43,223 bases of DNA from Candidatus Thorarchaeota archaeon (lineage in GTDB: Archaea; Asgardarchaeota; Thorarchaeia; Thorarchaeales; Thorarchaeaceae): positions 1 to 43,223 of the forward strand of contig JBHLRZ010000028.1 of the NCBI GenBank assembly GCA_048882045.1, read 5' to 3'. The position numbers and the translations under genes were made by a program. The first letter of the stretch is position 1. The number at the start of each line of letters is the position of its first letter. Shown here in pieces: positions 1-43,223 of the stretch. Under the pieces are notes generated by a model that worked only from the letters and a program-made list of their open reading frames with translations, had not been told where the DNA came from and made no database searches.

Positions 1-362
1 TATGCAGCCTCTTCAGCAAGTAGGTTCTCTGCGATCTGGTCATAGACCTCTGGTGGCATCACACCGACCAGTTTGTCCATCTTTCTGCCAGAACCATCAT
101 CGAAGACAACTCTCTTGCCCTCTGAGTATACTAGGACACTCGGAACGCCAGTAATCTGGTTCTCCATGCTGAACTCACGATTGTGGTCAACATCAATCTT
201 CACAACTTTCAAGCCTCTTGGTGCATACTTGTCGTGGAGCTCTTCTAAGATTGGACCTAGTGTTCTACAGGGACCACACCAAACTGCGTGGCAATCAACG
301 AAGACTACCTTATTGGTTTCAATTACCTTTGTCAATTCGTCTGAGCTAATGTCGTCTACCAT
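1..362 (-). CDS. trxA: Thioredoxin (120 aa; stop codon cut by the window edge)
   Basis: Manual minus-strand translation from ATG at 362: MVDDISSDELTKVIETNKVVFVDCHAVWCGPCRTLGPILEEL...KIDVD...ITGVPSV...LVGVMP...EEAA then TA at the edge. WCGPC active site and cis-Pro motif VP are present; GGGAGAG SD lies upstream. Absent from the ORF track because the stop is truncated. Confidence 0.95.
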   Translation of the reverse strand, partial: MVDDISSDELTKVIETNKVVFVDCHAVWCGPCRTLGPILEELHDKYAPRGLKVVKIDVDHNREFSMENQITGVPSVLVYSEGKRVVFDDGSGRKMDKLVGVMPPEVYDQIAENLLAEEAA

Positions 363-388
363 AATGCTACTCTCCCGTTTCATCGGGT

Positions 389-430
389 CGGTTGTGCATT
401 CTCGTTGCACAATCGTTATAAGGATTGTGC
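389..430. promoter_or_regulatory. Divergent-promoter region: TTATAA TATA-like box inside overlapping inverted repeats (putative operator)
   Basis: GCACAATC-gTTATAAg-GATTGTGC (407-430) has perfect 8-bp arms. cggTTGTGCA-ttctcgt-TGCACAAtcg (389-415) overlaps it. TTATAA (416-421) is about 55 nt upstream of the trx ATG. Confidence 0.55.
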
Positions 431-505
431 TATGAGCCTACAAATTTTTCAGTACTTGTCAGTGCCAAAGTTTGATAAGCGGCAGTCATTGGACTTCCTG
501 AGCTC

Positions 506-3151
506 TTGGTGAACAACATGCCCGTCCTTCATTGTCCAACATGTGGATCTCGTTTGGACATCAGAAAAGGGGGTGGCATATGGACTGTGACTTGCAGCAC
601 GTGTGCCAACGAGGTCACAGTTGGGGGTCCAAAAACCGACTTGTTTGATGCGTACGAAGCATATGTTTCACAGACAAAGGATGGGACTGCTCCTAAAATC
701 GACCATCGCAAGAAGAAATACTTGGGTTCAGGGGCTGACGCTCCTAGGCGCAAGCGACGACTGGCAGATACATCCCGTGTCCAGTCTGAAAAGGAGATCG
801 AACGTCTTGTGCAAGCTGGAGGTTCAGAACTCGAGAGTCTATCTGATCCTTTACAGAGACTCCTTCTACGAGGTAGAGACTATCTCGTTCAGTATAAGCT
901 CATGCCATCAACCGATGCTGTATATGGAAGTGATATCGATGATCTCAACATTCCTGCCCGGCTCAAGGACTATCTTCGAAACCGTGGGATCTCCAAACTC
1001 TACGAGTTTCAGGAGGAGTCCTATTCTGCCATTGAGAGTGGCGAGAATGTTGTGATTGCTGCACCGACTGGACAGGGTAAGACAGAGGGATTCATACTAC
1101 CCATTATCAGGCAAATCCTCTTGTCAGTACAAGACTCCTTTGAAAATCCTGGAGTCAGAGCACTCTTGATCTATCCTACGAAAGCGCTAGCTCGAGACCA
1201 ATATGACAAAATCAGACAGATGTGCAAGACTTCGAACCTCACTGTCGGGCTATTTGACGGAGATGTATCTCAGAATGCAAGACAGAAAATCTACGAGCGC
1301 TCTCCAGACATTCTTCTAACAAATCCAGACATTCTACACTATCATCTCGGTTGGAGCCAGTCCAGGTTAGTTCGTTTGCTCAAGACTGTCAGGTTTGTCG
1401 TCTTGGATGAGATACATCTCTACATAGGCTCAATGGGTGCCAATGTGCATCACATTCTAAAGAGACTGGAACTCGAGTGTGGGGAGTTCCAGAAGATTGG
1501 AGCTTCTGCAACAATCTCTAATCCAAAACAGTTTGCAGAGATTCTTTTCGACTGTGACGTGCGCCTGATTGAGTCAAAGACCGCCAAGAGAGGTCCAGTA
1601 CATTTCATGATCTATTACCCAGGTGCGCGTAGTAAGTATAGCATGATAGTTGATCTTGTGAGCCAGCTTCAGAGAGGGAGTTTCAAGACTCTCGTATTCG
1701 GAAATACACATACAGAGGCTGAGGTCCTGAACCTACTCATTTCTGACACTGGAGTCAAGTCTATGGTTCACAGAGCTGGTCTATCCAAGAAATATAGATC
1801 AGAAGTAGAGGATAAGTTCCGATCTGGAACACTACCAGTCATAGTTTCTACTCCAACGCTTGAGCTGGGAATAGACATCGGTGATTTGAACAGTGTTGTA
1901 AGTATGATTGTGTCCATCACTCGATTGACTCAACGAATAGGTCGTGCTGGTAGGCAGGGACAGGAAAGTGTTGCGATTCTAGCTTTGAGAGAAAATGATC
2001 CAATCTCGTCCTTTTACAGACACCAGCCTGACAAGTACTTCACTGATATTGATGCTGCATACACTGAACCTGAAAATGAGGTTGTAGGGTACTACCAATT
2101 GATTGCAGCAGCCATGAGTGGGAAACTGAACATAAACGATTTCTCCCGTTATCTAGATATACTGAGGAAGCTCGAGAGTGAAGGACTGATTGCGATTCAA
2201 CCAGATGGTATGGTACAGGTTGTTGATTTCGAATCAGCTCAAAAAGCATGGCGAGGATACAGTATTCGTGGAATCGGTGACACGGTTCAAATCAAGTCTG
2301 GAAAGAAAGGTCTCGGGGAACGGTCAATGCCTATGGCTGCTCAAGAACTTCATCCAGGTGCTATCTATCTGCACGGAGGAAAGAATTACCTCTCTGTCGA
2401 TTTTAAGTACACTCCAGGTCTTGGTCGTGCTACGGTCACTCCTCATACCGACAAGAGTACTCACACCAAACCGCTCTACTCAACTATGCCTCGGATTATT
2501 AATATCATTGAGCGGAGCAAGATTCTAGGTCTCAACGCAGTGTACTGCACTTTAGAGATGACTCAGACTGTTGAGGGTTATGTGAAGAAAGCAACCCGAA
2601 CTGGCAAGACTTTAGGAAAGTATTCTCTTGCTTCTCCATTGGTGTATAAGTACAACACTCGTGGATTTGCATTCACAGCACCTGCGCCAACAAAAGCAGT
2701 AAGTGACTATCTTTCAGGAAACCTTGGAACGTTCAAAGGTGGTAAGATGGGGCCTGCGATGATGTTTGGTGGCGCTTTCCATGCTCTTGAACATGTAGTG
2801 ATTGAATCTAGTGACATGCTGACAGGTGGAGGTGCTCGGGAGATAGGAGGTGTGTCCATGGGGGATTCTGGGATCATCTTTGTCTATGATGGAAGTCCAG
2901 GAGGTAATGGTGCATCGAAACTTTTGTTTACAAAACTAGATGAGGCATTCAAGAGGTCTCAGATCATCCTCGAGAAGTGTGATTGTAAAACGATAGATGG
3001 ATGTCCGCTCTGCACATACTCCTATAACTGTGGGAACAATAACAGCCCTCTGTTTAAAATCGGAGCTTTAGAAAGTATCAAAGGTATCCTGGAAAATGTA
3101 GAAACCACTGTAGACACTGATGGTTATGCAGGGTATGAGCCATTGGTGTGA
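506..3151 (+). CDS. SF2 DEAD/DEAH-box helicase, Hrq1/MrfA/SftH type, with C-terminal DUF1998 Zn-binding domain and N-terminal Zn ribbon
   Basis: Q motif LYEFQ; motif I APTGQGKT; Ia YPTKALARDQ; TNPDILH; II DEIH; III SAT; V TPTLELGIDIG; VI QRIGRAGR. C-terminal HALEH...YDGSPGGNG...CDCxxxxGCPLC. N-terminal CPTC...CSTC. Real start may be 509 (GTG) or 518 (ATG). Confidence 0.9.
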   Translation: MVNNMPVLHCPTCGSRLDIRKGGGIWTVTCSTCANEVTVGGPKTDLFDAYEAYVSQTKDGTAPKIDHRKKKYLGSGADAPRRKRRLADTSRVQSEKEIERLVQAGGSELESLSDPLQRLLLRGRDYLVQYKLMPSTDAVYGSDIDDLNIPARLKDYLRNRGISKLYEFQEESYSAIESGENVVIAAPTGQGKTEGFILPIIRQILLSVQDSFENPGVRALLIYPTKALARDQYDKIRQMCKTSNLTVGLFDGDVSQNARQKIYERSPDILLTNPDILHYHLGWSQSRLVRLLKTVRFVVLDEIHLYIGSMGANVHHILKRLELECGEFQKIGASATISNPKQFAEILFDCDVRLIESKTAKRGPVHFMIYYPGARSKYSMIVDLVSQLQRGSFKTLVFGNTHTEAEVLNLLISDTGVKSMVHRAGLSKKYRSEVEDKFRSGTLPVIVSTPTLELGIDIGDLNSVVSMIVSITRLTQRIGRAGRQGQESVAILALRENDPISSFYRHQPDKYFTDIDAAYTEPENEVVGYYQLIAAAMSGKLNINDFSRYLDILRKLESEGLIAIQPDGMVQVVDFESAQKAWRGYSIRGIGDTVQIKSGKKGLGERSMPMAAQELHPGAIYLHGGKNYLSVDFKYTPGLGRATVTPHTDKSTHTKPLYSTMPRIINIIERSKILGLNAVYCTLEMTQTVEGYVKKATRTGKTLGKYSLASPLVYKYNTRGFAFTAPAPTKAVSDYLSGNLGTFKGGKMGPAMMFGGAFHALEHVVIESSDMLTGGGAREIGGVSMGDSGIIFVYDGSPGGNGASKLLFTKLDEAFKRSQIILEKCDCKTIDGCPLCTYSYNCGNNNSPLFKIGALESIKGILENVETTVDTDGYAGYEPLV

Positions 3152-3156
3152 GGTGA
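3150..3156 (+). promoter_or_regulatory. Shine-Dalgarno site GAGGTGA overlapping the helicase stop
   Basis: GAGGTGA lies 6 nt before the TTG at 3163. The identical motif at 5087-5093 precedes the RaSEA ATG, supporting a translationally coupled operon. Confidence 0.7.
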
Positions 3157-3162
3157 AAAGGA

Positions 3163-5088
3163 TTGGCTGAGTTTCGAGTTGGTCGTGGTCATGATGGTCC
3201 TGCTCGCGCAGGGGAACTCATACTGGACGATACAACCTACGAAACCCCTCTTCTGACATCATTTGAGACAAAAAGTCCACAATTGATTACATCTTCCACC
3301 TTAGGAAGAGATGAAGTGTCTGAGAAACCTATGCTCGTTTCACTGCCGTTCATCAGTAAAATCGACGAGATAGATCTTGACCTCCTTCGCCCCCAAGATG
3401 TGTATCTTCTGCCATCCCTGGCATCGTTTGGTTCTTTGAGTTCAGAAGCCCCAGAGCTGATTCTTGACTATCAAATCCAAATCGCTACAAGTTTGAGTTC
3501 AAAAATCCCTACCTCGCAGATGATTCTACGGATTCCTTCTGAGATTTCTCCCGATTCGTTCAGTGAGAATTCTAGACGTTTGATGGAGAGCGGAGTTTCA
3601 GGGGCTGCCTTTTTGTTCAACGGACAGCTTGGCCCTGAGGACGCCGGAACATTCCAACTTCGAAGTCGCCTCCCCCTATCTATGATGACTATAGCTTTGG
3701 GAAGAATTTCTCCTGGGATGATTTCACTTCTGCATTATTTTGGATTTGATGTCATCGACATAAATCATGGACATGAAGCTGCAACGCAGAACGTCCGTCT
3801 CTGGAAGACCGGTCCTGAGAAGCTTGAAACTGGAAAGGTACCAAGATACTGCTCATGTCAATCATGCGCGAATATCGATGACACTGAGAACTTGTTTGAA
3901 ACACTTCTAAGTCATAATCTAGAAACTTACAAAGTTGTCATCTCAGAGTCAGTTCATGCCATGCGTATGGGTCAACTCAGATGGTTAGTTGAGGGATCTA
4001 CTCATAACAACACTGCATTGGCTTCCCTCCTCCGCACAATTGACAAGAATCTATACTCATTCGTTGAGGAGTTCACACCGACAATTGGGAGCAACACATT
4101 GCCGCTCATTGGACCAGAGTCCTACGATGCTCCAGCCATTAGACGATTCAGAGAATTGGTTGCATCACGATACACTCCCCCACAAGGTAAGCGGATTGTG
4201 CTGCTGTTGCCCTGTTCAGCAAGAAAACCATATTCTGATTCCAAATCCCACAGGACTATTGCTGAGGTCACTACTGTTGTTCTTGGTAGCATTCAACCAC
4301 GAGTTGCTGAAGCGATTCTCACATCCCCTCTGGGTCTAGTTCCAAGAGAGCTCGAGCGAATCTACCCGGCTGCTCAATACGACATTCCTGTAACAGGTGA
4401 TTGGGACACTCAAGAAGTAACAATCGGAGCAAAAGCACTTTCCACATATCTGAAGAAGTTCGACGGATCAGCTGTAGTTGTTGCTCATGTATCTGGTGGA
4501 TATCTGGACATAGTCCGGGCTGCTGAAGAAGACATTGAACAGAGTATTGTCTACACAACACACGAATCTCGTCCCACTAGCAGAGAGTCCCTCCAAAATC
4601 TGCAAGAGTCTCTTTCAGAGTTGAAGGAGGTCCTAGAAATTCCAAACGAACCCCGGACAGCACTGAGAGAACTCGTTTCAGCCACTGCGGACTTCCAGTT
4701 TGGAAAAGGCGCAGGCTCCCTTCTGGTTCCTGAGGATGCGAAACTCAAAGGGAAACCATACAAATTGGTTCTATGTCACGTCGATGGTGAACAGGTCTGT
4801 TCTTACATCGCTGAGAATGGCAACCTCTCATTGACGCTTGAAGGAGGAAAAAGAATTGCATCACTGAATCGTTACTGGGTCCGTCTTGATGTAAAGACTG
4901 TCAAGGGCGGATCGATATTTGCAGTAGGTATTCAGGAAGCAGATGTAGCCATTAGACCAGGTGATGAGGTCATCGTGGTCAACAACAATGGCGAGGTAAT
5001 TGGTGTTGGTCGGAGTGAGATGTCTGGTCGTGAGATGTGTGAATTAAATCGAGGTCGAGCTGTGACCCTGAGACATAAGGTTGGGTGA
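3163..5088 (+). CDS. arcS: Archaeosine synthase ArcS (TgtA2): degenerate TGT barrel, DUF5591-type catalytic domain and PUA domain
   Basis: TGT-like N-terminus (HDGPARAG...ETP) and Zn motif CSCQSC. Signature LLPCSARKPYSDSKSH, TSPLGLVPRELERIYPAAQYDIPVTGDW, ADFQFG. C-terminal PUA (GIQEADVAIRPGDEVIV...GVGRSEMSG...RGRAV). TTG start after an SD. Confidence 0.92.
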   Translation: MAEFRVGRGHDGPARAGELILDDTTYETPLLTSFETKSPQLITSSTLGRDEVSEKPMLVSLPFISKIDEIDLDLLRPQDVYLLPSLASFGSLSSEAPELILDYQIQIATSLSSKIPTSQMILRIPSEISPDSFSENSRRLMESGVSGAAFLFNGQLGPEDAGTFQLRSRLPLSMMTIALGRISPGMISLLHYFGFDVIDINHGHEAATQNVRLWKTGPEKLETGKVPRYCSCQSCANIDDTENLFETLLSHNLETYKVVISESVHAMRMGQLRWLVEGSTHNNTALASLLRTIDKNLYSFVEEFTPTIGSNTLPLIGPESYDAPAIRRFRELVASRYTPPQGKRIVLLLPCSARKPYSDSKSHRTIAEVTTVVLGSIQPRVAEAILTSPLGLVPRELERIYPAAQYDIPVTGDWDTQEVTIGAKALSTYLKKFDGSAVVVAHVSGGYLDIVRAAEEDIEQSIVYTTHESRPTSRESLQNLQESLSELKEVLEIPNEPRTALRELVSATADFQFGKGAGSLLVPEDAKLKGKPYKLVLCHVDGEQVCSYIAENGNLSLTLEGGKRIASLNRYWVRLDVKTVKGGSIFAVGIQEADVAIRPGDEVIVVNNNGEVIGVGRSEMSGREMCELNRGRAVTLRHKVG

Positions 5089-30421: not shown

Positions 30422-31633
30422 GTGCAGTTTCCGCGAACCAATATTAAGGTAGAACTCAAGACTACTGGCATATATCTTAGAGACCCCGTCACAACACGCA
30501 GATTAAGGATCATTGGTAAATCGTTCAGAGAAGTAATGGAGGAAGTCCAGCGATTTATCTATATTCGAGGTTTCAAAGTTCCTCCAGGAATTGTTAAATT
30601 TATACTAAAGAGAGTGGGACTGCCTGAAGTTGACCGGATTGTTGAAGAGTATGAGCTGACAGATGATGATATTGCTGAGCTCACAAGGACCCTCGAGGTT
30701 ATAGATGCTTTGAAGACCCTTGACGATTTGGAGGACACGTTACTTCTCGACTCACCGGAACCTGTTGATTTGATCTCAGACATTCCTGCTCCGCAAAAAA
30801 TGAGTATATGGGACATCCCCATTGACGAAGAAATCGAGAACATGGTCTATTCATTCCATCCTGAGCATCTACAAACAAGCGTTCCCACACCACGAACGCA
30901 AACAGCTGATGACGAACAACAAGTGAGGTTCATTTGGGATCTTCCTGAGGATGCAACAACAATTGAGGCCGCTCTTGGAGATGAGCAACCATCTTCTACA
31001 GTTGTATCTGACTTCCACGAACTGAAAGCTTTGTTCTTGGGTGAGGATGGAGTTGGAGTCAATAGTATACTTTTCGAGAGTAACCTGAAACTTGGGAATG
31101 ACTATAGCTCTCTCAACCTGCCTCCTACTGAACCACACACATTCAGTAACATCGTTCAGGATAATGGAGAAAATGTTCGAGTTGTTGCTTGGACGTTTGA
31201 GAAGACTATGGGAGCAAAAGTACCTAGGATCGAATTCTACTCTGGTTCAGGGATTGTAGTACTTGTCTATTCAGTTGCTGAAAGGTGGAGCTTCGATAGT
31301 CTTGATTTCTGGATTCGAGAGGTCTCCAATACCTTCCTTATTCCCCCACCGATAATAATAGTCGGAAATAAGACAGACCTCCGTGATCATCCGGTCTTTG
31401 ATGAAGATGATGATATGGATGTTCCTGTTTCAACAGAAGAGGGTCGTGAATACTGTAACCGGGTTTCCGAAAATGTAGGAGAAAATGGAAAGTTTCATCC
31501 AGTGTTTTTCATAGAAACTTCCACCATAACAGGTCAGGGGATCGCTGCTCTGTTGAACAAAATAGTAGACTTGTGGCAAAGCAATGAAAGACCGAGTATG
31601 CCAGCGACCGAAGAGTATGCTCCCAAACTTTAG
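30422..31633 (+). CDS. Ras/Rab-superfamily small-GTPase-domain protein with N-terminal extension and degenerate G1/G3
   Basis: LKALFLGEDGVGVNS (G1); VVAWTFE (G3 position); FYSGSGIVVLVYSV...SFDSLDFWIREV; PIIIVGNKTDLR (G4); VSTEEG; FIETSTITGQGI (G5). Confidence 0.85.
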   Translation: MQFPRTNIKVELKTTGIYLRDPVTTRRLRIIGKSFREVMEEVQRFIYIRGFKVPPGIVKFILKRVGLPEVDRIVEEYELTDDDIAELTRTLEVIDALKTLDDLEDTLLLDSPEPVDLISDIPAPQKMSIWDIPIDEEIENMVYSFHPEHLQTSVPTPRTQTADDEQQVRFIWDLPEDATTIEAALGDEQPSSTVVSDFHELKALFLGEDGVGVNSILFESNLKLGNDYSSLNLPPTEPHTFSNIVQDNGENVRVVAWTFEKTMGAKVPRIEFYSGSGIVVLVYSVAERWSFDSLDFWIREVSNTFLIPPPIIIVGNKTDLRDHPVFDEDDDMDVPVSTEEGREYCNRVSENVGENGKFHPVFFIETSTITGQGIAALLNKIVDLWQSNERPSMPATEEYAPKL

Positions 31634-31708
31634 AGCCTTATTATAGACCAGTTCTATCAGGACGTCGGTAGGTCAAATGTATAACTAAACAGACTCCTCA
31701 CATACTGA

Positions 31709-32365
31709 CTACATCAGGAACTGCTGAATGATTGTCACAACTTGCATAAGCACTCGAAGTGTCTTAGTCACATCTCCTTCGATTTCCAGACTGTGGTTCG
31801 CGCCCTCGACTACTACTCCACTCAACAATGTAGTTGCATTCAAACGATCGATGATGTCACTGTCATATTGGTCGTCCTTAGTCCCTATGACCAATACTGC
31901 ATCCTTCATGTAGGAGAGCATCTGCTCCATAAGCTCGGGATTCTTGATCAATGGAGTTAGCCAGATAGTTTTCGCATCCCTATATTCTTCATAAGTTTCT
32001 AGAATGTGTCCAATTGCAATTGTACCCAGTGACTTTCCTACCAGACATGCAACCTCTTGTTCAGCAACTTCAGTTACTATCCTCAGTGCTGCTTCAACAT
32101 CTCTGATCATCCAGTCAGCCTTTGCTCGTAATGGTTGTTCCATGAATTCAGGAATAGTTGAATAGTCGTAATCAACTGTGAGTAAGTTTAGTCCGCTGGC
32201 AAGAATTGCTTCAATTGAATAATGTAACAGTGGCATCGATGTGTTATATGACAACCCTGGAAAAACGAGTGCAACTTTTTCGGTTTCAGTAAACTGTTTG
32301 TAGTAACTGTTCCTTATGTTTCGGCCACGATATCCCTTAATATCCAAGACTTCTCTGGAAACCAT
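31709..32365 (-). CDS. Alpha/beta hydrolase
   Basis: FPGLSY oxyanion loop; GKSLG nucleophile elbow; WLTPL; IGTKD acid; GANHSL His. Confidence 0.88.
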   Translation of the reverse strand: MVSREVLDIKGYRGRNIRNSYYKQFTETEKVALVFPGLSYNTSMPLLHYSIEAILASGLNLLTVDYDYSTIPEFMEQPLRAKADWMIRDVEAALRIVTEVAEQEVACLVGKSLGTIAIGHILETYEEYRDAKTIWLTPLIKNPELMEQMLSYMKDAVLVIGTKDDQYDSDIIDRLNATTLLSGVVVEGANHSLEIEGDVTKTLRVLMQVVTIIQQFLM

Positions 32366-32449: not shown

Positions 32450-35400
32450 CTACTTCTTATCCAAATCCGCGTCGATGCTCTTCAAGAGATCCTCAATGAG
32501 GGCACTAGGAAGATTTCTTGCCTGTTCAATAATTGAATCAATCTCTTCTGGTGGTAAGCCTCTTTGTTCAAGTTGATTACGAAGATCATCAATCTCGAAT
32601 TCACTAAGTCTGTCCTCAAACTCAACTTCATCAACTGGTATCTCAAGATCAGCTTCCTCAATTGATTTCAGAAATTCTTCGATTCTCTTCTTTGGAGCTG
32701 TTTCTGCTTCTTTCATAATAGATACAATTTCTTCTTCGGGTACCTTCTTCCGAACCAATTCTGCATGTAAATCCTCGAGTTCTTCCTTCGAGAGCTTATC
32801 AACTCTCTTTCTGCGTTTCTTCTTCGCTGGTTTTTCAGGTTCCTTGAAGAATTCCAAAGCAAGTTCGCGAGGAAGACTCTTTGCTTGTTTGAGGATTTCC
32901 TCCATCTCTCGTTCACTAGCCTTTCGTTTAATTAGCTCAGATCGTAACCTCTCGAGTTCATCCTCAGAAAGGTGTTCAGTAACATCTTTGACTGGTTCTG
33001 CTTTCTCTCTAGGCTTGAAGCTCTGAAGAAGCATCTCGACGACATCCTTTGGTAGGTCTCTGGCCTGAGTGATAAATGACTCAATTTCATGGGAGGGAAT
33101 CCCGCGACTTTCAAGCTCTTCAGCCATTGCCTGCAATTCCAACTCTCTTAATTGCTGTTCGAAATCTAATCCTTCTTCTTTTGCTGTCTCTGAAATGTCT
33201 TCATCTTCTTCAGCAACAGCATAGATGTCTGGTTTGACAACAGTTGTAGAATCACCAATTCTACTCCTCCTCTCTGCTACAACCTCTTCCATTACCTGTT
33301 CAACAGATTTGTTTTGTATACGTGCAACTCTAATGGCTTCCTGCCCAATTACCTCTCTGACAAAGCTTGTTTGCTGACTCATCTTCATCTTTGATATCTC
33401 GAATTTGAATTCATCAAGTTCCTGCTGAGTCATTTCAGTGAGTATAGAGAGGTCGATGACTAATTCATCTATCTCAGGAACCTCAATGATGATTGATTCT
33501 CCCGGCATCGTCACGGGCTTTCTTTTAACACCTATCTCTTCATTTAATTCATTAAACAAGGCGGCTATAAGTTCCTGTCTTGATGCAACTGACTTCGCTG
33601 GTTTGGGCACTCGGCCTCTTCGCAACTGCCGAACTTGGCCACTGATGATTCTAATAATCTTTGGAACCCTTAGAATGCGTACCCAAACTACTGCGAAAAG
33701 AATCAAGAAGAGAGTAAATGCTCCTCCGTACGTAATCATATTCTGTAATGCGATGTCATCAGGGGAAGGACTCACTGGAACGCTAAAACTCACCTCTTTG
33801 GCGGCGTAGTAAGTCTTGTTGAAATTAATTGTCACCTCTGCAGAGCCATGAACACTGTATGCGGTAACTCTGAATTGGTAATATCCTGGACGACTGACAT
33901 CAGGACCAAGGTACTCAACAATAACAAATTCTGGGTTTCGATTATCAATTATGATTGTTGCATCAGTGATACCCTCTCCAGTGTGTCCAGGCCAGGAATC
34001 TGAGTAATGAATCCAAAAAGTTGTGTTCATTCCCCAGTGAAGCGGCATTACTGAAGGTCCGTCTATCTCAAGACTTGTTTGAATCTCGATAATACTGACT
34101 TCGAAATCAAATACTGCTGTTGTATAATTATCAAGCATGAAGAGGATGTGATATGAAATAGTTGTATATAATTCCCAGTCAAGTGTACTGAAGACAAAGG
34201 AATAATTGCCATTTCCATGGTTAATCAAGATGAGAAATTCTTCATAAACTCCAGGTCCAGAATAGAAAGAGTTGTTCGACAAAGCATCAGGAATTCCTAT
34301 GGCACTATTTGTATCATTGTAAAGTAGAGTTATTGAAAGTACATCTCCATAGGGGACTTGTAGATTAGTCCATGAATCACCTACTTGATATAGCGTGGGG
34401 AGAAGAATCGCGATTTTAGTAGGAACCGGGGCGATATGAATTCTAATTGTTATTTCTACATCATCGTAGTTTGCCTTTTGGAATGCCACTGTGATTGTAT
34501 AAGTTCCAGGTCTAAGACTTGCTGTATTTATTGGAATGCCATAGAGACCGTTTCCTAGATAGTAGCTACTTCCTGATCCGCCAGCCCATGAGAATACAGC
34601 AGACTCAGCTTGAATACCTTGTGCATGATGCGCGTCATAGTAGGTAACATTTACCAGTCCAGACCATCCCCAAACAAATTCTGGTGAACCAGATGACAAA
34701 ATGGATGCCTCTAGATTTCTCACAAATATCACTGTTGAATTATCTGCTCTCTCATAATCAGAATTGGGTGGATTTGCAGATATCAAGAATGTATGTAGAG
34801 CAGCAATACCTTGGCTAGTATTAAAGTCAAAGTAGTAATATCCAGAACCACCAATCAGTACCCCGTTCACAAGTGTTCCATTTGAGCCAAGTTCCGGTGA
34901 ATTCCATGTAACAACTAGACCATCTAATCCTGTCGAGTATGGGTTTGATGCGTTTAGAGCTGGAGCAAGAACGTAAACTCCAATTCTGACGATATCCGAC
35001 CAATAGAAGGAGGTATACTCATATGTTGCTGTGACATTGTCAAGCAATAGCACCATCTGTATTTTTGATATTGCCATAATCAATGTTGTCGATGCATTAC
35101 CATAGTTGTGCTTTGATGCCTCTAGATGAATCTGATAACTTCCAAAACCTGCAGTCCCTGTGGGTACTAGAAGTCTGTAATGTCCTGGATTCCCTGGAAT
35201 CTCTATCAGAGTTAGATTAGTGCTATAGTCCCATCTTGCAGAAATGCTAGCTTCAGGCACAGGACTCGCATCAATAGAATCCTCTAGGGAAACAATTACT
35301 TCAGCAGTATCTCCATAGGATACGGTGAAGACATATCTGTTCTGCTCAGGTATGACCTCCATAGGTCTTGGGAGAAGTCTGAAGATCAATTGATAGGAAG

Positions 35401-38400
35401 CATCAATATAGTTTGGTGCAATTCCTTCAATCCTAACTACTATTGTATCCGATATTGTACCTAAACTCGTATCGAGAATCGCTGTATAGTTGCCAGGTGC
35501 TCCAGATGGCAAAAATGAACCTGTTCCACCAATCCAATCATAGGTTATGGTTGCCAACGAAACAGTTTGATTTCTCAGAGTATCGTTAATTGCCGCAAAT
35601 ATGGTAAGGGGCTCACCCCAATATATTTCACTGGTAGGTCTTGGTCCACTCCAAGTGACTAAAAGCTGAGACGGTACTGCAAGAAGGTTAATTTCAACAT
35701 TTAGTGAAGTGATTGTATAATGTAGCAAATTAGCCGCCACATTCAAAATATTCGAACCAAAATTCAAACTACCCGTCTGGAGTGTTATGTTGTAGCTACC
35801 ATCTCCGAGATCCAAATATGATGACGAGTCTCCCCAAGTTAAAATCAATGTGGCTCCTGGAAGGGGACTATCATTGGCATCATAATCAACGATGTAAATA
35901 AACACGGATGCTGGATTGCCTGCATAGTTTGCTGGCGCTATTACTGCAGATAGACCAGCAACTCTGTTTCTTAATCCGAATACTACTGAAGTCTGAGCTA
36001 TCTGATATTGTGTGCGATTGACAGTTACCATGATCGATTGCAGACCTACGCTCAAAGTATCCATCATACTCAAAGTGATGTTGTACTGCCCCCCACCTAT
36101 TGGAAGAACCGACCAAGATGATGGCTCTAATCCTGTTGATCCGTATATGACAGAGATTTGTCCTTCTGCCCCATTTATCGGTATATCATGGTCCGTGTCT
36201 CTAAATTGTATCACAAACGACACTTCGTCATAGAATGCAACAACTGAAGGTGAGGGCAAATCACTTGAAACTGCAGTTTGAATTTCACGAACATGTCCCT
36301 GTATTTCAGAGGTAATAGTATCCTCATAGTAAGGACTAACGAAAGGACTCCATTGTAGTTCGATTACAAAAGTGAAGAATCCGAGGTCGCCCAACAAAGT
36401 CGTACTGATAAGAATTCCGTACTTTCCAGAGTCAATTCCAGTCCCCATCTGTATCCAATAATGTACTCCTTCTACAAGGCCGGGCACTTCAAGACATTGT
36501 AGAATTATGTTTGCACCTTCAATGGGGTATCCTGTTCTCTGATCTGTATATGTCAAGTTAATAATCATATTATCTCCAAAGGGTGTTTCCTCGATTGGAC
36601 TCAGCTCAACATTACCAACTCTTCCTACAGTGTCAACAAAAATTGAGGTAGCATCAGTATTATAGTATGGTGCACCAGCAGTCCAATCAATAAGAATTGT
36701 AATGTTCCAATTACTTACTAAACCTGCACTTAACACGGTAGAATTGATTTGAAGTCTATAAATGGAACCAATGGTTTGTACAACATATTCACCATATGCA
36801 AGAAGTGTTATGTCACTATAGATCTTAATGTCACCCAGGAATACACCCACTCTCTGTCCTGTTGATATATCCACAAATGCAAAATCCAATGTCATGTTAT
36901 CAAGATACCAAGTCTGTCCCGGTGGAAAGACTATTTCGACATTCGTTGGTCTCTCGATTACAGGAATATTGACGATCCTTTGAGCATCGCTATAATATGG
37001 TGGTCCAGCTGACCAACTGGCCATAACCTGAAGCGTTTTCAATCCTGGTGGTCCAAGAACTGAGGTGTCCACAGAGATCGTATATAGACCTGGGCTTGCT
37101 TCTACAATTATATAGTCAATTGATGGTTCAAGCAGTTCCAACCCGTAGTAGATGTAGATTGTACCACCAGTAATTCCTGACGATGATAATATGTCCTTGA
37201 ATAGAATTGTAAAGTTCACAAAATCCTGATAGTGCGTTTGAGATGGGGACGAAATCAAGTTTAGACTGGTGTCGCGCTCGCGCATCTCGAATGATACTAA
37301 GATATCCTTCCATTGGTAGAAAGGTTCTGTATATTCAGAGCTGAAATTCAACCAAAGATGATAGATCTGTCCTAGCTGGAGTGGATGATTATATGTTTCA
37401 ACCGTGAGTAGATAGCTTTGTAGTGAAGATCGCCATAAACACGTGAACAACCAATCGGTTCCATTTAGAATCTCTAGACTTGTCATGACTCCAGAACCAT
37501 TTCCTATTGAAACGAGAGTATCAAGATCCTGATAGTATAGAACGATACTGAACGAGTTGCCATATGGAACGGATCCAACTGGTTCAGCTGTCAATACTGT
37601 GGGGCGAAAATCAACAACAAGGTCCTTTGTAGCGCTTCTAGCTTGATAGTAAAACTGGGCAGACGAAACTTCCATCCTAAGCGAATAAACACTAGGTTGG
37701 CTGAAATAAGATGTGTTCAGTTCAATTAGATATTCTCCAAAGCCTAGACCAGTAATCTTCACATGACTAGAGGGTATCAATGCTAATCCAAAGTAAATCT
37801 CTAAGTTTGCATCTAGAACAGATTTGGAAGTCGAACCAGCAATGTCAACATATGTCACAGTAAAGGTGGCAATATTACCATAAGGTGTCGTAGGAGGTGT
37901 GGGATAAGTTAGGAGGGTCTGACGTTCTATCAGTGTTACTCCCACAGACCGTCCAGTGACATTTGAATAGAAGGGTAGTCCGCTCCAGGTAAGATTTAGA
38001 ACTAGCAATCTTGCTCCTAAAGGTCCTCCCAATTGACTTGTGTTGAATGAAATTGTGTAGAGGTCTTCAAGAGCGTTGTAGGTCAATGTGAAATCAGGGA
38101 CATTTAGTGATATTTCCATAGCAATAGGATCATAATCAATAGGACTGGAGGTACCTCCAGTTGTATCCTCATAGGTGAACGAAAAGGTGGCATTCTCACC
38201 AAAAGGAACATTGGTTGGTGGTATGACGGAAAGGGATGCTGCTCTTGGGAGCACTCGTACAGAAATCAGATCGGTCCTGTTTGTATAGAACGGAGAAACT
38301 CCAGCAGACCAGTTGATGAACACCTTCATTGAGATGATTCCCGTTCGTCCAATTATTGAATTATTGAACCCAATCGAGTATTCTCCGGGTCTACCAAAGC

Positions 38401-41400
38401 TGTCTATCTCCCAGATATTCACTTGCGACAGATCAACACTTACACCTACAAACTCTACACTAATGAAAACATCAGATGTGTCATTTGTTATCCCTGTACC
38501 TGTGGTCACACTTGTATACAGAAATGTGTAGACCATATAATCAAGGCATGGAGAGGGAATAGCTGCTTCAATCAATGTAAGATCTGTTTCCTCCCCAATT
38601 ATCTCTACTGAAACTGAGATGTATCTATTCTCATACTTCTGAACGCTTCCCGTCCAATTGAAGAAGACAGTCAGTTGCTGAGTACCGAGTCCTGCGAATT
38701 GTGATGCATCTATAGTTATAATGTAATAGCCCGCACTGGTGTCATTGTCCCATGTTATTGTCAACTGATTAGTTGTGTTCCACACGGTGCAGAGAACATC
38801 TGATGATACAATCCCCTGTAGGTGGTCTCTATCACCGTAATATACAGAAATATCGATTTGACCAGTTGGCGTGCTATCTTCGATTGGTGACAAAAGACGT
38901 AACTCAGTGTCAATTGATCGAATGGTTACAGTAACCTTGAACGTAGCTATTTCATATTCCGCACCAGACCAATAGTCGAAGACTAAAAGATATGATGTCA
39001 AGGTGTCGCTGTCATAGGTGTTAATGGTGATACTATAGCGATTACCAATCCAAACAATATCATAGTGAACAGGGGTCCAATTACAGATGTGATTCAGAGT
39101 GAAGATTGGTAGGTCATGATCCATGTCAACATAATCCACATAGAATGTTCGGGAGTCTCCTACTGGTATCTCAAGGTCACTGACAGTAGCTGTGGCATAT
39201 GTTCTGATTTCCCTGACAGTGATGTCAATCGAAATTGTTTGATTCTCATAATTCAGCGCAGACGCAGTGAGGTTCACATTGTAAACTCCAATGCTCCAAG
39301 CTGAAGTGTCGAGTATGACTCTATACCTGCCACTACTTATCAGCAGTTGATCAATTTTCACTGCTCCCGTCACATAGATTGTGGCAGTATCAATCCCTAG
39401 TCCTCTATCAATGTCTACAAACTCTAGAGTGATGACTGCGTTTGTGCTATAGGAAATAGTGAAGAGAGGATAGTCTGGAGAGCTGAGGTCGCTGCGAGCT
39501 TGACTGAACTGAAAACTAATGATTGGCGTTTGTACATCAGAGTAATTCTCAGCTCCTCCAAATACAAGGAATATTCGTATTCCATAATTGCCTCCCGGGA
39601 AGTATGATCGGTCTAACGTTAAGACATAGGTTCCTGAACCCTGATCTGAAAATGTCTTGATTGGATAGATTGTACCGTTCTTATCTCTGATTATGAAATG
39701 GCTCTGCAGGAGTCCATTCACTGCCATGTTATCATACATCGAACTGGAATCGTTCACAATAACATGAGTAGTTATTTCGAAGTCGTCGCCGATTGGGAAG
39801 ACACCTATCTCGTCCCATGAGAGTGCTGTAGTCAGTTTTTGAATTCTCAATTGTATTGCTGTGGTCCCATCATAGAAGTATCTCGGAGATGCAGTTGTGT
39901 AAACTGTAATGTCAATTGTATATGTTCCAATGGTCCAATCCTGCGATTCGATTAGGAATTGAAGCGTACCATATACGGAAGAACCTCCGGTCCATTCAGC
40001 GAGAACACTTGAAAGATTACCGCTAATCGCTACATTTCCATTATCAATGTCAAACATCTCAAGAGTGACGGTAGTATTCGATCCCAAGGATATGGATCCA
40101 TCATAGGTTGCCACTACAAGGAGTCTATGTGGTCTTACAGTCACTGAAACTGTGATTTGACTCGATTGATAATTAATATCACTAATAGTGAAATTAAACA
40201 AGTAGATGCCAACGCTGTAGGACTCTACATCCAGGTTAATCGAGTATCTCCCATCTAGTAGGTCGATATAATCAAATGCTCCATCCCCACTCAATGTTCC
40301 TCCAGTTATTCCAAGATAACCATGATCAATATCTTGCCAATTTAATATAATAGTTGCATTTTCTCCCCAAGGCACACTCACAGGGTTAATTTCAACTTGA
40401 ACAAGGTCTGTGGTAACATCTCTGTATTGAACAACTACATCTACTGAGCTTCCAATTACGAAACTTTGTGTTGGGATTGCATCTAATTCGAAACAATATG
40501 TTCCCACAGTCAGACCAGTTGAATCGATGTTGACAAGATATGTGCCGTTGCTATAATCAGTAACACCGCTAATCGTACCATTCGATGTGAAGGATGCTCC
40601 ATCATAATATGTTCCAGTTATGGCATCTTGAAGATTCACTCTAATGCTGAAGTCATCCCCATAGGGTGTGGATAGTGGCGTTCGATGTGTCAGAATTGTG
40701 TTATGTGAAAGCTCCAAGTCAAAATAGGTTGTTGCGTCAATAAGATATGGGTGACTTGAAATGATATTGAGTCTCCAATTTCCTGGTTGACCCAAATCAG
40801 ACGTGTTTAGGGTTTTACCATAGATGCCATTCCCATAGTCTTCAAACTGAACTTGTGTTTCAAAACCCGATATACTCCAGTTCATCGTAACAGTCGAACC
40901 TGCAATATTCTGTGTTGTTTCAGAATTCGTCAGTTGAACCTCCACCTCTAGAAGGTCTCCCGCAGTTCGAACAGAAACTCCATCTCCGACTGCATCAGTT
41001 GGTGATAGCAGATCCAATGTCGAGGCATGTCTGACAGTGAATAATCTATTATATCTCCCAATTCGCTCTGGACCGGAGTCACCAGTGTTATTGAAGTCAA
41101 TATAGGCTTCCCAAATTCCATTTGGCCAAGAACTTGTCACACTAATTCCAGTCCATTCGAACTGACCACTACCATCTTGACTCAAGTCATCAGCGCTGTA
41201 AAAGAGCTGACCACTTGGATCTACGAGATAAAGTTTCATTGCAGATCCAGGAATGATTGTAGCAGTCCCTCTGAATTTCGCCAAGTCTCCATTTTGAAGT
41301 GTAACCGTATCTGTGTATGATCCAGCATTCGCACCACATTCAAGAAGTGACGCTTCATTATTTGATGAGAATATGAACCTCCAGACACCATAAACATCAA

Positions 41401-43223
41401 GTACTGATGCTGGCACTGTGACTAGTGTCGCTGTGGTTGTGATTTCCGAAAACCTGTTATCCCCAACAGGATCAGACACACGCGTCAGAGTCCATTCTAC
41501 TGGATTACTCAAATTGAAGCTTAGTTCACTGATACCAGCTGGGGGACTAACCAAAACATTAGCAATCCAAGTTGATTCAGTGCCATTTGCAACAGAGAAT
41601 GATGTTCCTGTTACCATGTTCTCATCCAGTGTTGAGCTCTGAGTTTTCACATTGAGTGTTATTCTTGGAAGGATGCTCACAACCGATGAGGTAGCTGTAG
41701 TGAAGGACAATGTAACGTTTTGTCCATATTGTACAGTCTGTTCAGAACCAACACTTAGGAAGCCAGATGGGTCGTACTGGTTTTCATATTCGGTCTGAAT
41801 CCAGCTAGCAGATTTGTAGCCCATCATTGTGCGAAACTCGTCTATTCCTCCAAGATGAACTTGCCCGCCTCCATATGCACCTAGCATGAAAATGTTCGAG
41901 GCGTCTGTCAACCTGTCTCCCGATCCTATGCTTGAATCTGATGAGGAATCCTGCAGTACACCGTCTGCAAAACTGTAGGCTCGTAATGTTCCATCACCAG
42001 TACTTTCATACTTGTACACAACAAAGTTCCATGTCTGACGTTTCACCAAGACATTGACGTATGTGTTGCCTCCAATATTAAAATGGATGTCAGGTTGGAA
42101 CGAAGCATAGTCGTCTGGCCAGCCCGTTGGATTCCTGAAAGTCCTTACCAGAGTTACAGATGAGCCCTTCTGAAAGACTAAGGGCTCTACACTTGTCCAC
42201 TCAGCGTCACTTGAGTAATCAAAGTAGACCCAAAACGAAAACTGGAAGTCTGTCCAACCGTCGAAAATACTGTCGCCATCTATGAAGGGAATATAATTGC
42301 CTACCGCATCCTGGAAGTACCTAGCATCACCAATTTTCGCGTTCTGCATAAAGGATGTTTGAGTGGGCGTGCCGTCATGGTAATTCGGGCTCGAGTCTTT
42401 TAAGAACGAGCCATTGCCGGACTGTTCTGCGAGATGCCAAACGCTGTTATAGTCGTCCCAAATCTGATTCGGATTCTCTAGCATGACTGCATTTGGAGCT
42501 CCATACGCCATGGTGACTATTGTGTCAGTGGAAGCAGACAATAGAGGAACTTTCACCCAGGCTACAAGATGTGCATGAGTCGAATTATAATTTGAGTCAA
42601 AGAGCTCTATTTCGTGATCTAATGTTTCTGAACCTAGCATGAACTTGATATCATCCCCATCTGGCTTAGCATCAGTCTTGAGATCGCTGTCAAATATGTC
42701 AACCAGAACCGGGAAGTCCTCAAGGTCTGAGTTCACCTTTGTGTGGTCTATTGTCAAGTCTTTTGCATAATTAAGGACGGAAATACTGTCATCTTCCTGA
42801 GGAACTAGGTAGTCAACGTAGAGTGTAGCCAAGTCGTCGCCGCCATAACCCCATGTGCCCCTAATGGAGTTCCAGTCACGGTATTGGTCTGAGTTCATGT
42901 AGTCAATCATGATGCAGATATAGTTCCCATTATCCCAACCAGAACGAGATACTACACTTTGCACAAGTGAAGACATGTCAGGGGTTCGATATCTAAAATA
43001 GTTCTGCCAAGAATCCTGTATCCAAGCTACACTAGTTCTGCTCCAGCTATACCTGTCTTCTAGAGTCGGCAAGCCATTTGTGAATGGCGAAACATTGTCT
43101 TCCTCAGCTACAAATACACGAAGCGAATTGCTACCTCCACCAAAAGAGCCTAGCGCTTCCACTTCGAGAGATGCTGAGGTGATTATTGCACCTTGTGGAA
43201 TATCTAGCGGGAATTGGATGCCA
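32450..43223 (-). CDS. Giant (>3590 aa, 5'-truncated) type-I single-pass surface protein: DUF2341 + LamG/ConA-like + ~20+ Ig-like repeats + TM + cytoplasmic repeat tail
   Basis: The frame stays open past 43162 to the window end (GIQFPLDIPQGAIITSASLEV). DUF2341-like (IDHTKVNSDLEDFPVLV...DGDDIKF...AWVKVP); LamG-like (VWHLAE...IDEFR...SWIQTEYENQ); ~100-aa repeats (PYG/PWG...Y.D...I.GA...G.G.Y.I..NT..L); TM YGGAFTLFLILFAVVWVRIL followed by basic residues. Confidence 0.88.
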   Translation of the reverse strand, partial: GIQFPLDIPQGAIITSASLEVEALGSFGGGSNSLRVFVAEEDNVSPFTNGLPTLEDRYSWSRTSVAWIQDSWQNYFRYRTPDMSSLVQSVVSRSGWDNGNYICIMIDYMNSDQYRDWNSIRGTWGYGGDDLATLYVDYLVPQEDDSISVLNYAKDLTIDHTKVNSDLEDFPVLVDIFDSDLKTDAKPDGDDIKFMLGSETLDHEIELFDSNYNSTHAHLVAWVKVPLLSASTDTIVTMAYGAPNAVMLENPNQIWDDYNSVWHLAEQSGNGSFLKDSSPNYHDGTPTQTSFMQNAKIGDARYFQDAVGNYIPFIDGDSIFDGWTDFQFSFWVYFDYSSDAEWTSVEPLVFQKGSSVTLVRTFRNPTGWPDDYASFQPDIHFNIGGNTYVNVLVKRQTWNFVVYKYESTGDGTLRAYSFADGVLQDSSSDSSIGSGDRLTDASNIFMLGAYGGGQVHLGGIDEFRTMMGYKSASWIQTEYENQYDPSGFLSVGSEQTVQYGQNVTLSFTTATSSVVSILPRITLNVKTQSSTLDENMVTGTSFSVANGTESTWIANVLVSPPAGISELSFNLSNPVEWTLTRVSDPVGDNRFSEITTTATLVTVPASVLDVYGVWRFIFSSNNEASLLECGANAGSYTDTVTLQNGDLAKFRGTATIIPGSAMKLYLVDPSGQLFYSADDLSQDGSGQFEWTGISVTSSWPNGIWEAYIDFNNTGDSGPERIGRYNRLFTVRHASTLDLLSPTDAVGDGVSVRTAGDLLEVEVQLTNSETTQNIAGSTVTMNWSISGFETQVQFEDYGNGIYGKTLNTSDLGQPGNWRLNIISSHPYLIDATTYFDLELSHNTILTHRTPLSTPYGDDFSIRVNLQDAITGTYYDGASFTSNGTISGVTDYSNGTYLVNIDSTGLTVGTYCFELDAIPTQSFVIGSSVDVVVQYRDVTTDLVQVEINPVSVPWGENATIILNWQDIDHGYLGITGGTLSGDGAFDYIDLLDGRYSINLDVESYSVGIYLFNFTISDINYQSSQITVSVTVRPHRLLVVATYDGSISLGSNTTVTLEMFDIDNGNVAISGNLSSVLAEWTGGSSVYGTLQFLIESQDWTIGTYTIDITVYTTASPRYFYDGTTAIQLRIQKLTTALSWDEIGVFPIGDDFEITTHVIVNDSSSMYDNMAVNGLLQSHFIIRDKNGTIYPIKTFSDQGSGTYVLTLDRSYFPGGNYGIRIFLVFGGAENYSDVQTPIISFQFSQARSDLSSPDYPLFTISYSTNAVITLEFVDIDRGLGIDTATIYVTGAVKIDQLLISSGRYRVILDTSAWSIGVYNVNLTASALNYENQTISIDITVREIRTYATATVSDLEIPVGDSRTFYVDYVDMDHDLPIFTLNHICNWTPVHYDIVWIGNRYSITINTYDSDTLTSYLLVFDYWSGAEYEIATFKVTVTIRSIDTELRLLSPIEDSTPTGQIDISVYYGDRDHLQGIVSSDVLCTVWNTTNQLTITWDNDTSAGYYIITIDASQFAGLGTQQLTVFFNWTGSVQKYENRYISVSVEIIGEETDLTLIEAAIPSPCLDYMVYTFLYTSVTTGTGITNDTSDVFISVEFVGVSVDLSQVNIWEIDSFGRPGEYSIGFNNSIIGRTGIISMKVFINWSAGVSPFYTNRTDLISVRVLPRAASLSVIPPTNVPFGENATFSFTYEDTTGGTSSPIDYDPIAMEISLNVPDFTLTYNALEDLYTISFNTSQLGGPLGARLLVLNLTWSGLPFYSNVTGRSVGVTLIERQTLLTYPTPPTTPYGNIATFTVTYVDIAGSTSKSVLDANLEIYFGLALIPSSHVKITGLGFGEYLIELNTSYFSQPSVYSLRMEVSSAQFYYQARSATKDLVVDFRPTVLTAEPVGSVPYGNSFSIVLYYQDLDTLVSIGNGSGVMTSLEILNGTDWLFTCLWRSSLQSYLLTVETYNHPLQLGQIYHLWLNFSSEYTEPFYQWKDILVSFEMRERDTSLNLISSPSQTHYQDFVNFTILFKDILSSSGITGGTIYIYYGLELLEPSIDYIIVEASPGLYTISVDTSVLGPPGLKTLQVMASWSAGPPYYSDAQRIVNIPVIERPTNVEIVFPPGQTWYLDNMTLDFAFVDISTGQRVGVFLGDIKIYSDITLLAYGEYVVQTIGSIYRLQINSTVLSAGLVSNWNITILIDWTAGAPYYNTDATSIFVDTVGRVGNVELSPIEETPFGDNMIINLTYTDQRTGYPIEGANIILQCLEVPGLVEGVHYWIQMGTGIDSGKYGILISTTLLGDLGFFTFVIELQWSPFVSPYYEDTITSEIQGHVREIQTAVSSDLPSPSVVAFYDEVSFVIQFRDTDHDIPINGAEGQISVIYGSTGLEPSSWSVLPIGGGQYNITLSMMDTLSVGLQSIMVTVNRTQYQIAQTSVVFGLRNRVAGLSAVIAPANYAGNPASVFIYIVDYDANDSPLPGATLILTWGDSSSYLDLGDGSYNITLQTGSLNFGSNILNVAANLLHYTITSLNVEINLLAVPSQLLVTWSGPRPTSEIYWGEPLTIFAAINDTLRNQTVSLATITYDWIGGTGSFLPSGAPGNYTAILDTSLGTISDTIVVRIEGIAPNYIDASYQLIFRLLPRPMEVIPEQNRYVFTVSYGDTAEVIVSLEDSIDASPVPEASISARWDYSTNLTLIEIPGNPGHYRLLVPTGTAGFGSYQIHLEASKHNYGNASTTLIMAISKIQMVLLLDNVTATYEYTSFYWSDIVRIGVYVLAPALNASNPYSTGLDGLVVTWNSPELGSNGTLVNGVLIGGSGYYYFDFNTSQGIAALHTFLISANPPNSDYERADNSTVIFVRNLEASILSSGSPEFVWGWSGLVNVTYYDAHHAQGIQAESAVFSWAGGSGSSYYLGNGLYGIPINTASLRPGTYTITVAFQKANYDDVEITIRIHIAPVPTKIAILLPTLYQVGDSWTNLQVPYGDVLSITLLYNDTNSAIGIPDALSNNSFYSGPGVYEEFLILINHGNGNYSFVFSTLDWELYTTISYHILFMLDNYTTAVFDFEVSIIEIQTSLEIDGPSVMPLHWGMNTTFWIHYSDSWPGHTGEGITDATIIIDNRNPEFVIVEYLGPDVSRPGYYQFRVTAYSVHGSAEVTINFNKTYYAAKEVSFSVPVSPSPDDIALQNMITYGGAFTLFLILFAVVWVRILRVPKIIRIISGQVRQLRRGRVPKPAKSVASRQELIAALFNELNEEIGVKRKPVTMPGESIIIEVPEIDELVIDLSILTEMTQQELDEFKFEISKMKMSQQTSFVREVIGQEAIRVARIQNKSVEQVMEEVVAERRSRIGDSTTVVKPDIYAVAEEDEDISETAKEEGLDFEQQLRELELQAMAEELESRGIPSHEIESFITQARDLPKDVVEMLLQSFKPREKAEPVKDVTEHLSEDELERLRSELIKRKASEREMEEILKQAKSLPRELALEFFKEPEKPAKKKRRKRVDKLSKEELEDLHAELVRKKVPEEEIVSIMKEAETAPKKRIEEFLKSIEEADLEIPVDEVEFEDRLSEFEIDDLRNQLEQRGLPPEEIDSIIEQARNLPSALIEDLLKSIDADLDKK
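32470..33150 (-). repeat. Four ~40-aa helical repeats (55-65 aa spacing) in the cytoplasmic tail of the giant protein
   Basis: LQAMAEELESRGIPSHEIESFITQARDLPKDVVEMLLQSF / LERLRSELIKRKASEREMEEILKQAKSLPRELALEFFKE / LEDLHAELVRKKVPEEEIVSIMKEAETAPKKRIEEFLKSI / IDDLRNQLEQRGLPPEEIDSIIEQARNLPSALIEDLLKSI. Confidence 0.85.

Follow-up and report, generated by a model that had tools for sequence, protein, structure and literature searches.

What is the function of a long, apparently cytoplasmic tail on a giant archaeal surface protein? The question is raised by a stretch of 43,223 nucleotides (nt) from Candidatus Thorarchaeota archaeon (contig JBHLRZ010000028.1 of assembly GCA_048882045.1), referred to below as the window, which is the whole of contig C28 in a genome of 3.6 Mb and 93% completeness. 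An earlier note on this DNA, made from the sequence alone, had described a giant protein with a transmembrane (TM) segment, a receptor-like tail and four helical repeats, and had compared it to cadherins and integrins. Our data point most readily to a tail that serves as an intracellular protein-docking platform, a reading to which we assign a probability of roughly 0.55. A candidate adaptor would be held by the juxtamembrane (JM) segment, and a set of three-helix bundles at the end of the tail would act multivalently.

The reverse strand of the window contains one open frame of 3590 codons (32450-43222), unbroken to the contig end. It encodes the C-terminal part of a type I membrane protein, the N-terminus being cut by the end of the contig. 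The whole frame is 58.7% identical to a 3989-residue orthologue, P0003, with the alignment beginning at P0003 residue 407. An open reading frame (ORF) at the end of contig C47 of the same genome (G000:C47:20449-21156), which opens with a basic and then hydrophobic, signal-peptide-like stretch and runs off the contig, aligns to P0003 residues 13-237. Alignment to P0003 and synteny in congeners would join C47 to C28 with about 170 residues unassembled between them, and the full protein should therefore have roughly 3990 residues. In congeners a four-unit giant of about 3980-4011 residues lies directly downstream of a giant of about 5200-6200 residues, the arrangement that C47 followed by C28 would give.

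Several features of the frame bear on its topology. The Kyte-Doolittle 19-residue mean rises to 2.23 over the TM segment, and elsewhere it exceeds 1.6 just once, around residue 2270; near the C-terminus no other segment is strongly hydrophobic. AlphaFold2 models the segment as a helix with a predicted local distance difference test score (pLDDT) above 90. The net charge is +9 in the 30 residues after it versus -2 in the 15 before it. There are 62 N-x-S/T sequons in the ectodomain (1.96 per 100 residues) versus one in the tail; the ectodomain consists of 33% S+T+N+G and 12% aromatic residues, and the tail is free of cysteine, with 17% K+R, 24% D+E and an overall net charge of -28. From the positive-inside rule and from the sequon, cysteine and charge composition we infer that the 405 residues after the membrane are cytoplasmic. 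Judged by its sequence, the protein is a giant N-glycosylated single-pass type I surface protein with a conserved cytoplasmic tail.

All elements of the tail mentioned in the earlier note are present: a JM segment, a helical domain, an acidic linker, four three-helix units and a basic stretch, KPAKKKRRK, located between units 2 and 3. The units were verified with a non-circular hidden Markov model (HMM), trained on 37 units from single-unit proteins only. They score 35-72 bits, versus a best domain score of 5.1 bits among 200 shuffled tails, and because the real scores so far exceed those of the shuffled tails, the repeats are not a chance pattern. Unit 4 is the most canonical and the nearest to the single unit of paralogues, and unit 2 has K-R-K-A-S in place of the R-G-x-P turn. 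All units are net acidic, from -3 to -9.

The predicted structure agrees with this subdivision. The AlphaFold2 model of the whole tail, computed from an alignment of 70 tails, has a mean pLDDT of 85.8 and a predicted template modelling score (pTM) of 0.36, and passes from the TM helix through the JM helix, a loop with a G-R-V-P-K-P turn, a short helix, an extended stretch and four helices to the bundles. In the model every unit is a bundle of three helices, across which the block-mean pLDDT is at least 91. The four helices of the helical domain (model residues 94-165 in the whole tail and 67-138 in a model of the JM segment and the domain) have pLDDT of 84-97. The linkers between bundles are of low confidence, and the acidic linker, variable in length and sequence among relatives, falls below 50 over model residues 169-196. 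A pTM of 0.36 combined with linkers below pLDDT 50 fits independent beads in the predicted tail.

The JM segment, which holds the basic helix RVPKIIRIISGQVRQLRRGR, carries a family motif, PK..R.I......G..P.P....R, whose P, K, R, P and R do not vary across the 70 tails; together with the L, M, S, F, V, Q and E that are unchanging in the helical domain this makes 12 invariant residues. Folded alone, the JM segment and the helical domain gave pLDDT 87.1 and pTM 0.56, with the non-helical stretches also confident, and the model suggests that in the Thorarchaeota lineage the JM segment packs against the helical domain. A prediction of the complex between this pair and one three-helix unit, in a head-to-tail or fold-back arrangement, scored 0.00 and was uninformative either way. 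An HMM of the JM segment alone, with Loki-like sequences included, gives the window protein a score of 47.6 bits (E 3.7e-13), and its matches in the genome are confined to six giants.

These six giants form three co-oriented tandem pairs (C3:171516-193433; C47:2756-20452 with C28; C23:42230 onward with C53). The same pairs recur in congeners, and given this recurrence the giants may act in pairs. An overlap of 29 residues (96.6% identical) between the end of C23 and the start of C53 would join the parts of another giant. The five further giants of this genome, of 4086, 3187, 5898, 2568 and 1370+ residues, share the tail with one unit and without the basic inter-unit linker. All nine copies of the unit in this genome reside in the six giants, and no free-standing copy that could suggest homotypic pairing was found there. 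The JM segment and helical domain are 45-54% identical to those of three paralogues, versus 34-38% for the best ectodomain segment; for the more distant pair the values are 31-32% versus 24-28%. Among five congeners, the tails are 66-75% identical over all 405 residues.

The set of four units also proves to be stable. Across 11 four-unit tails the alignment keeps all units in register, the turn of unit 2 is always of the K-R-K-A-S type and that of unit 3 of the K-K-V-P type. The K/R-rich stretch between units 2 and 3 is kept in 9 of 10 orthologues and is missing in P0028. In a tree of 54 units, the copies of unit 1 form one group (90/81) and those of unit 4 another (97/80), each including 10 orthologues, and units 2 and 3 of congeners group together (96/93). 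Since units group by position, the quadruplication is older than the sampled orthologues, which are down to 44% identical. On the evidence of these alignments, one orthologue group has long had the four-unit form, with the units conserved by position.

The tail defines a family of proteins. A tail-profile search of 1.84 billion representative proteins returned 151 matches at E 0.001 or better, and those relatives that have a source name are all from Candidatus Thorarchaeota or Promethearchaeota. Among 118 unit-bearing representatives, 105 have one unit, nine have four and four have two, at least some of the latter being short fragments. Two apparently unrelated proteins unlike the giants, P0139 (1093 residues) and P0146 (457 residues), are weak matches to the unit profile (E 6e-6 and 2e-4). 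They contain 3-8 copies of an L..L...G-L...E-I..I-I..A-K helix-turn-helix pattern, and their likeness to the unit is probably convergent, by a common helix-capping pattern. The C-terminal end of P0139 may resemble a flagellar hook-length-control (FliK-type) protein.

In a survey of 250 sampled genomes of the phylum with a profile of the JM segment and helical domain, 58 of the family's 59 genomes had matches at E < 1e-40, as did the single genome from its sister family in the order. Family f12 has weak, divergent, near-full-length matches, and in f3, f9 and f21 matching is limited to the first 45-58 positions or so, that is, to the JM motif. No match was found in f5 (26 genomes), f22 (16) and f14 (10). 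In these genomes the helical domain is present at full strength in this order, with weak matches in f12. Surface proteins of the Odin-like family f3 and of f21 (G026, G037, G069, G086, G078) consist in their C-terminal parts of a TM segment, the JM motif, a linker rich in Pro and Glu, and a single helical unit at the very end. This terminal unit resembles helices 2-3 of the Thorarchaeal unit, and only one of these proteins reaches E 1e-5 with the unit profile. By this comparison of sequences, the layout of a leash plus a terminal unit may be older than Thorarchaeota.

A candidate partner of the JM motif emerges from gene order in other Asgard families. In G026 (f3, a 1.4-Mb genome) and G069 (f21), an ORF encoding a TM segment, the JM motif and a unit is followed within about 35 nt by a gene for a protein of about 360 residues, which we call the candidate adaptor. 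The regions 1.5 kb upstream of 20 more adaptor genes were sampled, and in 6 of them a JM-bearing ORF ends within about 170 nt of the adaptor gene (3/3 in f9, 1/1 in f3, 2/3 in f21). There are eight such loci in total: G026 and G037 in f3; G069, G086 and G078 in f21; G044, G175 and G255 in f9. The 13 non-adjacent loci of the sample are from f2, f7, f12, f13, f19 and f21, and no JM-bearing ORF adjoins the adaptor in those sampled from f2, f7, f12, f13 and f19. The JM proteins of the Loki-like family f9 have the same motif after the TM segment as the window protein (hydrophobic-P-K/P-x-[IV]-R-x-I-R ... K-G-x-x-P). Their tail consists of the motif and about 35 residues, with the adaptor gene adjacent, whereas the window tail adds the helical domain, the leash and the bundles, and its adaptor gene is unlinked.

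The genome of the window encodes a full-length adaptor orthologue of 379 residues (C9:13196-14326; tblastn E 3e-51, 31% identity) and a paralogue of 375 residues (C45:9485-10582). The orthologue is located 513 nt upstream of a gene for a 573-residue Arf-family GTPase bearing N- and C-terminal extensions, and the paralogue overlaps by 4 nt a gene for a 283-residue Arf-like GTPase. Across the phylum, the adaptor family occurs in 181 of 251 genomes and in every JM-positive family; six families (65 genomes) have no JM match and one adaptor match among them. A genomic link from the JM motif to the adaptor and an Arf-like GTPase is thus supported by gene order in other Asgard families, and the putative components are present in this genome.

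The adaptor has no Pfam match, and its region 250-320 shows a weak likeness to winged-helix regulators (E 0.008-0.5). The paralogue on C45 is also divergent from an 851-residue ORF with a sub-threshold match to EAP30/Vps36 (ESCRT-II-like). Longer adaptor frames of 520-690 codons exist in f12 (L066, L069), f9 (L067) and f28 (L068). They were considered as possible JM-adaptor fusions and rejected, as the additional length comes from C-terminal extensions of about 150 residues and not from a TM segment with the JM motif. Near the loci of two distant relatives, P0142 and P0134, no adaptor gene was found, and downstream of the C3-type giant in 20 genomes there is a conserved block of convergent or unrelated-looking genes with no adaptor.

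The tail matches no described family found in Pfam, the PDB, the ESM Atlas or the literature. Pfam and NCBIfam gave nothing above cut-off on the tail, and Foldseek against the PDB, run with the whole tail and with the JM segment plus helical domain, gave no match at E 0.001 or better. In the ESM Atlas, template modelling scores by shape were 0.31 or less and language-model features gave no usable match. With a sequence profile of the unit, the PDB yielded nothing beyond designed helical repeats and fragments of the polycystin-2 EF-hand, none of them better than E 8e-4, and no description of this tail was found in the full-text literature. An exhaustive VIA-align run against 48,161 chains gave only Z values that the tool itself regards as common among helical bundles. 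It aligned unit 4 best with the X domain of paramyxovirus P protein (8kdb_B; Z 5.9, root-mean-square deviation (rmsd) 2.7 Å, 53 residues); further alignments were to 5wah (Z 5.5), 3bbz (Z 5.3) and a protein A domain, 5cbn (Z 5.3). For the helical domain the best was an adenovirus cement protein, at a noise-level Z of 5.7. Several death-fold and CARD structures also align with it, 3oq9 at Z 5.3 (rmsd 3.3 Å, 67 residues) and 9kv7, 9vin, 2g7r, 2n83, 2l9m and 8ss1 at Z 4.0-4.5; these alignments involve four helices only and have a noise-level Z. Generic three-helix modules such as the paramyxovirus P X domain, protein A and CUE/UBA domains are protein-binding beads, often on flexible linkers. The units share their shape without sequence similarity, at a Z as for unrelated bundles, and the likeness gives no family assignment.

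In the docking platform that we favour, the JM motif would be read by the conserved cytoplasmic adaptor of about 375 residues, a candidate proposed from gene adjacency in three other Asgard families, whose gene lies beside that of an Arf-family GTPase in this genome. The bundles on their flexible acidic leash would be protein-binding beads, four of which could recruit a cytoplasmic partner multivalently, by avidity, and the surface coat would in this way be coupled to the cell interior. Four observations weigh against this proposal. The most conserved positions of the unit (E10, L18, E27, Q34, A35) look mostly structural, as helix caps and core, with no clear binding surface among them. The JM segment is predicted confidently jointly with the helical domain and may be part of a globular domain, not a free docking peptide. 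Common descent confounds the phyletic pattern of motif and adaptor, whose counts are not independent, and so does the limited sensitivity of a Thor-centred profile towards a motif of 40 residues. Finally, no giant of this genome or its family has the adaptor gene beside it, and the link comes from other lineages.

The receptor described in the earlier note stands as regards topology, fold, conservation and multivalency; the tail is conserved, is predicted to be inside and not extracellular, and matches no known anchoring domain. The likeness to adhesion receptors holds by analogy only. Like integrin beta, with its partners talin and kindlin, and cadherin, with catenins, the window protein has a large glycosylated ectodomain of repeats, one TM segment, a basic stretch next to the membrane and a conserved tail with a putative role in docking cytoplasmic adaptors, with multivalency through repeated modules. 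In contrast to their short linear motifs, the tail here is mostly folded, no relation in sequence or fold was found, and the host is an archaeon. A stronger version of the platform is that the tail forms the inner half of an outside-in receptor, with the JM-held adaptor and its Arf-like GTPase next to four beads that recruit a second machine of the cytoplasm, cytoskeletal or membrane-remodelling, in several copies. Clustering of the ectodomains upon ligand binding or contact would then direct local GTPase and cytoskeleton activity. We hold this version to be rather unlikely at present; if true, adhesion-receptor signalling would have a prokaryotic forerunner in the archaea most closely related to eukaryotes. 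The coupling to cytoskeleton, coat or DNA suggested by the earlier note found no support.

Other explanations do without recruited signalling proteins. The tail could be structural, its JM helix lying on the inner leaflet and the leash with the bundles serving as an entropic or electrostatic spacer or as a tail-tail link, and would then organise the surface coat of an organism that has no regular S-layer. The strong segregation of charge along the tail (+9 in the JM segment, -3 to -9 in the linker and units), the tandem arrangement of the giants here and in congeners and the confinement of the units to them are consistent with such a role, and so is cryo-tomography of Asgard cells, where a single membrane bearing complex surface proteins was observed and an ordered S-layer was not (PMC9834061). 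A pure spacer, however, needs neither well-folded, position-conserved units nor 12 residues invariant over 70 tails, and we think it improbable that structure is the whole answer. The JM segment and helical domain could instead be a signal for biogenesis or sorting, recognised in insertion, glycosylation, quality control or targeting to a pole or protrusion of exported proteins of this great size, with the adaptor as chaperone or escort. The motif directly follows the TM segment of many unrelated ectodomains in several Asgard families, it is coupled in an operon-like manner to one adaptor gene in three of them, and it is common to all six giants of this genome. Such a signal leaves unexplained the Thor-specific helical domain and the conserved modules of one or four units at the end of the leash, and a small GTPase as the adaptor's neighbour fits a switch at least as well; we judge it a distinctly unlikely account.

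The remaining two explanations depend on the identity of the units. The earlier note had loosely likened the repeat to Pex14-N and RecX-type units, and the RecX part of the comparison has some basis: RecX (PF21982, PF02631) also consists of tandem three-helix units of about 45-50 residues, with recurrent weak HMM matches to ours. Scanned singly, 25 of 58 units match RecX_HTH1 at E up to 1 (best E 3.5e-4) and 14 of 58 match RecX_HTH2, all below the gathering score; two relatives bear a precomputed PF21982 (RecX) label; and the whole tail against RecX_HTH1 gives E 0.47 and 10.9 bits, the cut-off being 26. Pex14-N is not among the Pfam matches of the tail or units nor among the 50 listed structural matches, an absence by which it is not excluded. 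If the likeness to RecX were functional, helix-turn-helix-like units and the conserved KKKRRK linker might bind DNA or RNA and fix the nucleoid or RNA to the envelope. We consider this very improbable, since binding to DNA is disfavoured by the acidity of every unit and the tail as a whole is strongly negative. Moreover, RecX is not among the listed structural matches, the five single-unit paralogues are without the basic linker, and, in contrast to the RecX units packed in one rod, those of the window protein are predicted to be flexibly linked and belong to a membrane protein without a RecA context. The least probable explanation of all, to which we give next to no weight, is that the units are UBA/CUE-type bundles binding a beta-grasp modifier, as in eukaryotic receptor sorting. 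It derives from a G-hydrophobic-P turn after helix 1 and an LL ending helix 3, which we presume to be a UBA/CUE pattern. The CUE-ubiquitin complex 1otr does align to unit 4 (Z 4.5, rmsd 2.3 Å, 45 residues), but with a Z no higher than the noise among small helical bundles. None of the 25 Pfam families that the 58 units match most frequently is a UBA/CUE family, and neither ubiquitin (PF00240) nor NPR2 (PF06218) has a match in this 93%-complete genome, other beta-grasp proteins not having been searched.

The tail bears on how the Asgard surface communicates with small GTPases, longin-type regulators and actin. As this genome also encodes a candidate for the adaptor and two for the GTPase, the system could show whether adhesion-type proteins were linked to a GTPase switch as early as in archaea. 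Its parts are of expressible size: a 56-residue JM segment, a helical domain of about 85 residues without known relative and a 50-residue unit in one or four copies. Even if the tail were only a structural anchor, it would still be a new domain family marking the giant surface proteins of an entire order.

Table 1. Features of the window protein and of the two genes beyond its stop codon (residues are those of the open frame; AlphaFold2 helices are in model residues)
Feature	Residues	Position	Strand	Remarks
Ectodomain	1-3162	33737..43222	-	Beta-strand- and sequon-rich; DUF2341 near N-terminal end
Single transmembrane helix	3163-3184	33671..33736	-	Hydropathy; AlphaFold2 helix
Juxtamembrane segment	3185-3240	33503..33670	-	Basic amphipathic helix, G-R-V-P-K-P turn, second short helix
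Helical domain	3241-3325	33248..33502	-	Extended stretch, then four helices (~3251-3322)
Acidic disordered linker	3326-3352	33167..33247	-	33% D+E
Unit 1	3353-3403	33014..33166	-	44.4 bits; AlphaFold2 helices 203-215, 220-230, 235-244
Unit 2	3413-3463	32834..32986	-	35.3 bits; AlphaFold2 helices 263-275, 280-292, 295-301
Basic linker KPAKKKRRK, between units 2 and 3	3464-3472	32807..32833	-	K/R 7/9
Unit 3	3473-3522	32657..32806	-	39.5 bits; AlphaFold2 helices 322-334, 339-351, 354-369
Unit 4	3535-3584	32471..32620	-	71.9 bits; AlphaFold2 helices 384-396, 401-411, 416-432
Last six residues and stop codon		32450..32470	-	Translation
Alpha/beta-hydrolase-like ORF		31709-32365	-	218 residues
Protein with Ras-like C-terminal half		30422-31633	+	403 residues

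In the ectodomain, DUF2341 (PF10102) is recognised at residues 188-256 with 23.6 bits, the Pfam cut-off being 23.4. Two genes lie between the stop codon of the giant and a methylase-like gene (30422-32365), namely the hydrolase-like and Ras-like genes of Table 1. They were considered as partners of the tail and rejected: both are missing from the corresponding locus in five congeners, which have the methylase-like gene directly after the giant, and they are thus an insertion peculiar to this genome. Upstream, the start of the 5898-residue giant is overlapped by 32 nt by a gene for a 222-residue leucine-rich-repeat protein without an obvious signal peptide (G000:C47:2119-2787), which has many paralogues in this genome.

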